From NCBI RefSeq assembly GCF_013167455.1, contig NZ_CP038328.1: a stretch of 64,000 nt of DNA; one strand, given 5' to 3'. A program made the translations under genes and the position numbers. Positions 627 to 836 of this stretch are shown here, in pieces. Positions within the stretch are counted from its first letter, which is position 1, and the number at the start of each line of letters is the position of its first letter. A model generated the notes under the pieces. That model searched no databases. It worked only from the letters and a program-made list of their open reading frames with translations, and was not told the DNA's origin. The DNA is from Escherichia coli O157:H7. Lineage in GTDB: Bacteria; Pseudomonadota; Gammaproteobacteria; Enterobacterales; Enterobacteriaceae.

Positions 627-836
627 TTATCTTAGGAATTCACTGATGTAATCTGAAATAGCCTTATTCAATTTTGATAAAATAGATTGTTCTCTAACGC
701 GTTGAAAAATAATATTTTTTAGTGTGTTCTTAACTGTTTTAAGATGTTGATTTAAGAAAGCATAAGAGGTGCTGGTCATAGTGGTTACTACACTATAACC
801 AGCATTTTTAACCAAATGATTGTAATGCTTAGCCAT
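627..836 (-). CDS. hypothetical small protein (69 aa) in the ygeG-ygeH gap; may be non-coding
   Basis: ORF-track entry; its ATG (836-834) overlaps the ygeG stop codon (831-829), a coupling-like arrangement; weak AGAAGA Shine-Dalgarno-like sequence upstream; no recognisable domain. Confidence 0.25.
   Translation of the reverse strand: MAKHYNHLVKNAGYSVVTTMTSTSYAFLNQHLKTVKNTLKNIIFQRVREQSILSKLNKAISDYISEFLR

Follow-up and report, generated by a model that had tools for sequence, protein, structure and literature searches.

The 69-codon open reading frame (ORF) on the minus strand between ygeG and ygeH of Escherichia coli O157:H7 (627..836) is very probably a chance, lineage-specific by-product of recent mutation in the regulatory DNA of ygeH, and not a conserved gene. 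It had been proposed as a small gene translationally coupled to ygeG. That proposal was not borne out: the frame is broken in relatives, purifying selection on it was not detected, and it is not among the intergenic ORFs found translated by RIBOseq in strain Sakai. The reading as a gene is refuted because the frame is interrupted by frameshift or stop codon in close relatives. All coordinates refer to the window, the whole stretch of 64 000 nucleotides that was analysed.

The ORF, its start and its annotation

Over its first 2 kb the window is identical (100%) to E. coli O157:H7 genomes; this segment is the left-hand part of the ETT2 island, in reverse orientation. The minus strand carries the 5' part of ygeH (1..495, start codon at 495..493), which encodes a HilA-family regulator and runs off the window, followed by ygeG (829..1320), a SicA/LcrH-class type III secretion chaperone gene with a TPR_3 domain and matches to the SicA and LcrH models, and by ygeF (1546..2037), an intact 163-codon ORF in O157:H7 with no Pfam or NCBIfam match. 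In K-12, ygeF is annotated as a frameshifted pseudogene. The protein collection contains many 154-aa YgeG variants whose alignment to the query covers only 75-83% of it, suggesting a C-terminal frameshift that has recurred; in strain ZF8-1, a GAA-to-TAA change ends ygeG early. The yqeJ-yqeK spacer contains a 26-codon 'hypothetical protein' (WP_000655820.1 / WP_000655821.1) that is annotated in both K-12 (3710..3790 of record L002) and EDL933 (39848..39928 of record L022).

The gap between ygeG and ygeH (496..828) measures 333 bp at 30% G+C and holds the ORF on the minus strand, with the ATG at 836..834, the TAA at 629..627 and the translation MAKHYNHLVKNAGYSVVTTMTSTSYAFLNQHLKTVKNTLKNIIFQRVREQSILSKLNKAISDYISEFLR. 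The ATG is built from the ygeG Asn-Gly codons (AAT GGC) and precedes the ygeG stop codon, TAA, by 2 nt, giving an overlap of 8 nt on the same strand (829..836), the bases from 836 to 829 being ATGGCTAA. Gap, ORF and the overlap of its ATG with the ygeG stop were all found as originally predicted. At the level of sequence, a start that overlaps the stop of the upstream gene is what is seen in translationally coupled operon pairs of the ATGA/TAATG type, and the ORF likewise lies on the same strand as its neighbour, with the ATG just upstream of that stop. It differs from such pairs in having an overlap of 8 nt, compared with the common 1 or 4 nt, in lacking a Shine-Dalgarno sequence (no good match was found before the ATG, where the upstream sequence is CAGAAGATA) and in the lack of conservation of the downstream frame, the partner gene being missing in relatives. 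The combination of a ribosome-binding site in the upstream gene with a conserved downstream frame was not found for ygeG and the ORF.

The description of the ORF as unannotated holds in part only. It is absent from the Sakai and EDL933 annotations, and in some O157:H7 RefSeq genomes it is the PGAP hypothetical protein WP_001062242.1, called in 8/29 O157-type rows among the matches listed. PGAP is uneven on identical DNA: the ORF is called in TR01 (L001), under the late-numbered tag RS28870, and uncalled in EDL933 (L022). The EDL933 locus tag RS19800 is missing between ygeG and ygeH, which suggests that a call for the ORF was later withdrawn.

Searches of Pfam, NCBIfam and PDB sequences gave no domain or match for the ORF, in line with the absence of a domain signal noted in the original prediction. 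A word-indexed search of 5.8 billion proteins returned 5 clusters, all from the ygeG-ygeH locus, and an exhaustive phmmer (HMMER) search of 1.84 billion representatives returned 2 hits, namely the ORF itself and one 56-aa sequence; homologues outside the ygeG-ygeH locus in Escherichia were found in neither. Two sequences, P0019 (55 aa), a hit of the word-indexed search, and P0072 (56 aa), the second phmmer hit, were considered as divergent homologues and rejected. Both come from the sister assemblies GCA_002230845.1 and GCA_002229895.1 and were treated as assembly artefacts; the first of these (L003), the sole sister assembly inspected in detail, contains single-base indels throughout the locus, ygeG and ygeH included.

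The length of the ORF had been taken to make a chance origin less likely, an argument that turned out to be weak. ORFs of at least 69 codons occurred in 2.8% of 5000 dinucleotide-preserving shuffles of the gap (1.0% on the ORF's own strand), and the window contains 122 ORFs of at least 69 codons that are nested in longer ORFs of other frames. The frequency of 2.8% is mildly unusual for one gap and unremarkable given the many gaps in a 64-kb window or a genome. The codon-usage score of the ORF, calculated against 29 ETT2 genes, was 0.123; this is intermediate between real ETT2 gene windows (mean 0.233, sd 0.088) and off-frame runs (mean -0.013, sd 0.093) and decides nothing, as it corresponds to the 10th percentile of real 69-codon gene windows, yet falls in the top 5.5% of off-frame stop-free runs. 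AlphaFold2, run on the single ORF sequence, predicted one long helix with a pLDDT of 89.9. Such a model from one sequence says little, and a lone helix would match anything.

Translation was assessed from the Sakai data of Hücker et al. 2017, in which ~12,000 intergenic ORFs without annotation and with a minimum of 30 codons were scored by RNA-seq and RIBOseq in LB, in BHI and in BHI with combined stress, and 465 were kept. The ORF (Sakai 3,714,521-3,714,730) is not among these 465 translated intergenic ORFs, which is a weak negative, ETT2 being H-NS-silenced in such media. The table passes from the entry at 3,706,677-3,706,793 to that at 3,792,484-3,792,789 and has none between.

Frame status and divergence across Escherichia

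The region is present in 3,549/5,426 complete E. coli genomes. The ORF stretch is matched at 99% or more in 309 of them, and every sampled row of this class was of the O157:H7 type, with the 230-bp form. Full-length non-O157 rows (53 in number) were sampled evenly over the rest of the ranking, which comprises ~3,240 genomes; all 53/53, at less than 96% identity, had the 231-bp (+1) form. Nine non-O157 E. coli alleles, K-12 among them, were fetched. At the site of the 1-bp difference (787..788, minus strand), O157 reads GTAG-TAACC, compared with GCAGTTAACC in all other E. coli alleles. The extra T in the nine non-O157 alleles shifts the frame, and its absence joins the ATG to the long frame. 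Codon 40 (717..719, minus strand) is AAA (Lys) in O157 and the stop TAA in 9/9 non-O157 alleles, and the outgroup position aligned with this change is also T. From the same ATG, the nine non-O157 alleles, K-12 included, have a 32-codon ORF.

Outgroups were reached via YgeG homologues in the protein collection and their contigs. A contig scan of species representatives using the YgeG protein gave no match; a close ygeG is apparently absent there, or the exact 8-mer patterns failed. In a divergent Escherichia lineage (L009/L010; YgeG 84% identical) the start is followed by a stop at codon 5 (ATG GCT AAA CAT TAA), leaving 4 codons. In E. albertii (YgeG 67% identical) YgeG ends ...DINN and there is no ATG at the site; the ygeG-ygeH gap of this species, 341 bp by called gene coordinates, contains no ORF longer than 31 codons. 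Conservation of the frame had been named as a check on the prediction, and the outcome was negative, with interruption by a frameshift and a stop in the non-O157 alleles and by the stop at codon 5 in the divergent lineage. The ATG itself is retained in all E. coli alleles examined because it is ygeG coding sequence.

Outside the O157:H7 clade, the open 69-codon frame was found only in the guinea-fowl isolate GF4-3 and in one Logan assembly, L004. A neighbour-joining tree built from the flanks alone and rooted on the divergent lineage placed all carriers in one nested clade, and the long frame is therefore derived. The alignments indicate that the open 69-codon state was reached via a one-base loss and the loss of a stop codon.

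A test for selection on the frame had likewise been called for, and it gave no indication of purifying selection. Between O157 and L004 the pN/pS of the ORF was 0.66, a value that comes from small counts (5 nonsynonymous, 2 synonymous). Among carriers it was ~0.7-0.8, with totals over the carrier tree of 6 nonsynonymous to 2 synonymous changes, about the neutral expectation; counts as small as 6:2 leave room for weak constraint on the ORF. Against non-O157 alleles, read in the O157 frame, pN/pS was 1.1-2.4 where defined, one allele having no synonymous change, and the 32-codon frame among the other alleles gave 1.12. The flanking genes are constrained, with pN/pS values of 0.02-0.08 for the 5' part of ygeH and 0.15-0.46 for ygeG. 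The 4 changes in the ORF between O157 and GF4-3 all fall at codon position 2. An explanation of this excess by another coding frame was tried and rejected: these positions are the third positions of the K-12 frame, which ends at codon 32 and has a pN/pS of 1.12.

No part of the locus evolves faster than the ORF stretch. Leaving aside the O157:H7 clade, whose alleles are nearly identical, E. coli alleles depart from O157 by 3.3-8.1% in this stretch, compared with 0-3% in the other 132 bp of the gap. Alignment to the divergent lineage gives 71% identity and 16 gap columns for the ORF stretch (remainder of the gap, 87%), and alignment to E. albertii gives 41% identity (remainder, 58%).

The gap as upstream DNA of ygeH

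The gap is AT-rich, lies directly upstream of ygeH and is 92-100% identical to other E. coli alleles, the 132 bp adjoining ygeH being better conserved than the ORF stretch. A ygeH fragment from -207 to +21 of strain 042 has promoter activity, and H-NS binds it specifically and represses it (Hüttener et al. 2014, PMC4210603), and fusions in strain 042 and K-12 hosts showed that IHF is required to counteract H-NS at the ygeH promoter (PMC4210603). Counted from the start codon, this fragment would span about 702..475 of the window and with it the 3' third of the ORF (its last ~76 nt). In K-12, the ygeG/ygeH spacer is one of the H-NS-associated 'promoter islands' (2989603, 468 bp) catalogued in connection with foreign genes (Panyukov and Ozoline 2013, PMC3661553). 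The island covers the stretch homologous to the ORF.

As an alternative to the gene, the original prediction had offered the gap as a long regulated 5' leader for ygeH, by analogy with hilA. The regulatory part of that idea agrees with the published work (PMC4210603, PMC3661553); for a long transcribed leader there was no transcription start site in the gap among the EDL933 Cappable-seq starts listed. In substance, the evidence supports the interpretation of 496..828 as an H-NS-bound regulatory region of ygeH, a promoter and H-NS-silencing region that in K-12 has been classed as a promoter island. Like the hilA-type region of Salmonella SPI-1, it is AT-rich DNA upstream of a gene for a HilA-family regulator, and in strain 042 the ygeH promoter region is bound and repressed by H-NS, with IHF counteracting H-NS (PMC4210603). 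It differs from the tested region in that the latter was characterised in strain 042 and not in O157, in which YgeH has been reported as apparently non-functional (PMC4210603). The gap is also not known to contain activator sites of the HilD/HilC/RtsA type. With regard to the K-12 promoter islands (PMC3661553), island status belongs to the DNA and not to the ORF, and the promoter scan performed here was unenriched. It returned 8 promoter-like sites by consensus, compared with 6.7 expected from shuffles, which is not significant alone.

The best sigma-70-like match (549..576, minus strand) reads ATGACA-16-CATAAT, agrees with the consensus at 10 of 12 positions and falls in the better-conserved, ygeH-proximal part of the gap, 54-81 nt ahead of the ygeH ATG. 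It does not vary among the E. coli alleles, and the divergent lineage retains it. By inference from the match, the site is a candidate core promoter of ygeH, and a start from it would result in a leader of only ~50 nt. Strain 042 presumably carries the 32-codon allele. Rfam gave no match in the gap region.

Several further features were observed in and around the gap. A transcription start site of EDL933 (L022) at record position 3802396, at about window position 459 on the minus strand, lies 37 nt inside ygeH on the coding strand and is the only one among those listed. An exact match, AATCAACATCTTA, to the IHF consensus WATCARNNNNTTR is located at 740..752 on the minus strand, inside the ORF and upstream of the -207 fragment (PMC4210603). 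Part of it falls in the 10-nt block TTCTTAAATC (758..749), which is unchanged between E. coli and E. albertii while the stretch around it is poorly conserved. Next to ygeH, the final A of the TAA that closes a 22-codon upstream ORF (495..563, minus strand) is also the first base of the ygeH ATG (TAATG). K-12 has this ORF too, indels disrupt it in the divergent Escherichia lineage, and the corresponding TAATG of E. albertii terminates an ORF of 31 codons. The 22-codon ORF could be a chance occurrence or a small coupling ORF for ygeH.

Origin of the frame and competing explanations

The frame can be accounted for by a short series of changes. The end of ygeG, Asn-Gly-stop (AAT GGC TAA), supplies the ATG in all E. 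coli, opening a frame of 32 codons in most strains. In the ancestor of the O157:H7 clade and a few relatives such as GF4-3, a T was lost at 787/788 and a T-to-A change turned codon 40 from TAA into AAA, the two together giving 69 codons. The sequence that follows the ATG would be unconstrained AT-rich spacer and silencer DNA. No terminator-like site was found in the gap after ygeG, so that transcripts reading through from ygeG are possible, on which ribosomes ending ygeG could restart at the ATG. The product of such a restart would comprise 69 residues in carriers and 32 in other strains; its sequence would not be selected, and its translation would be noise. Given the start-stop overlap and the missing terminator, some translation of the ORF is plausible.

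This origin places the ORF close to the lineage-restricted intergenic ORFs (ORFans or 'proto-genes') of AT-rich, horizontally acquired, H-NS-silenced DNA, in which PGAP annotation is uneven. In common with these, the ORF is limited to one clade of one species, has no homologues, evolves neutrally, is called in only some of a set of near-identical genomes and arose by an indel and the loss of a stop. Unlike them, it has a start that overlaps the stop of a real gene, and it could be translated by reinitiation.

The same extension from 32 to 69 codons might instead have produced a very young de novo gene, coupled to ygeG, whose translated helical peptide has become functional within the O157:H7 clade, for instance through an effect on YgeG or YgeH; we consider this unlikely. 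Three carrier lineages and at least 309 genomes keep the frame intact, its start overlaps the ygeG stop, its codon score is above that of most spurious frames, PGAP calls it in some genomes, and AlphaFold2 predicts a single long helix (pLDDT 89.9), although a single-helix prediction from one sequence carries little weight. Against this, the substitutions among carriers are mostly nonsynonymous (6 to 2) and approximately neutral, the ORF has no Shine-Dalgarno sequence and it is not in the Sakai RIBOseq set. In addition, a new partner protein is unlikely in O157, since its ETT2 is degraded and its YgeH is reported non-functional (PMC4210603). Early gene birth, in which each translation of ygeG also yields a helical peptide that is starting to be used or at least tolerated, is distinctly improbable.

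It is very improbable that the act of translation matters and not the peptide. Ribosomes restarting on a ygeG-ygeH transcript would then modulate Rho-dependent polarity or mRNA stability, and with it the expression of ygeH, the spacer being covered by ribosomes over 96 nt in most strains and 210 nt in O157. The missing terminator-like site after ygeG and the presence of the ATG in all E. coli alleles are compatible with this, and variation in ORF length by lineage together with neutral evolution of the peptide would be expected if only occupancy counts. However, the coding sequence of ygeG fully accounts for retention of the ATG, which E. albertii lacks, and in the divergent lineage the frame has no more than 4 codons. 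Furthermore, a promoter belonging to ygeH itself is present in the 207 bp before its start (PMC4210603), and a ygeG-ygeH co-transcript is without evidence.

An older origin was also considered. In SPI-1 and in the Shigella mxi-spa region, class II chaperone genes (of the sicA/ipgC class) are usually followed by translocator genes, and the SicA and LcrH models both hit YgeG. It is nevertheless extremely improbable that the ORF preserves part of such a gene, for example its 5' end, decayed in most lineages and by chance open in O157, and this origin was rejected, as no similarity was found in the 5.8-billion or 1.84-billion protein searches, Pfam, NCBIfam and PDB gave no hits, E. albertii and the divergent lineage have no comparable ORF in a stretch that aligns poorly with many indels, and the open state is derived and not ancestral.

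The main use of the chance, lineage-specific reading lies in annotation hygiene: WP_001062242.1 is called in only some of the near-identical O157:H7 genomes and is without support as a gene. Were the ORF a true gene, a secretion island that is poorly understood and for the most part decayed would gain a small protein, and the ORF would serve as a dated example of de novo extension. For the DNA between ygeG and ygeH, 'H-NS-silenced upstream region of ygeH' is a more fitting description than 'gene'.
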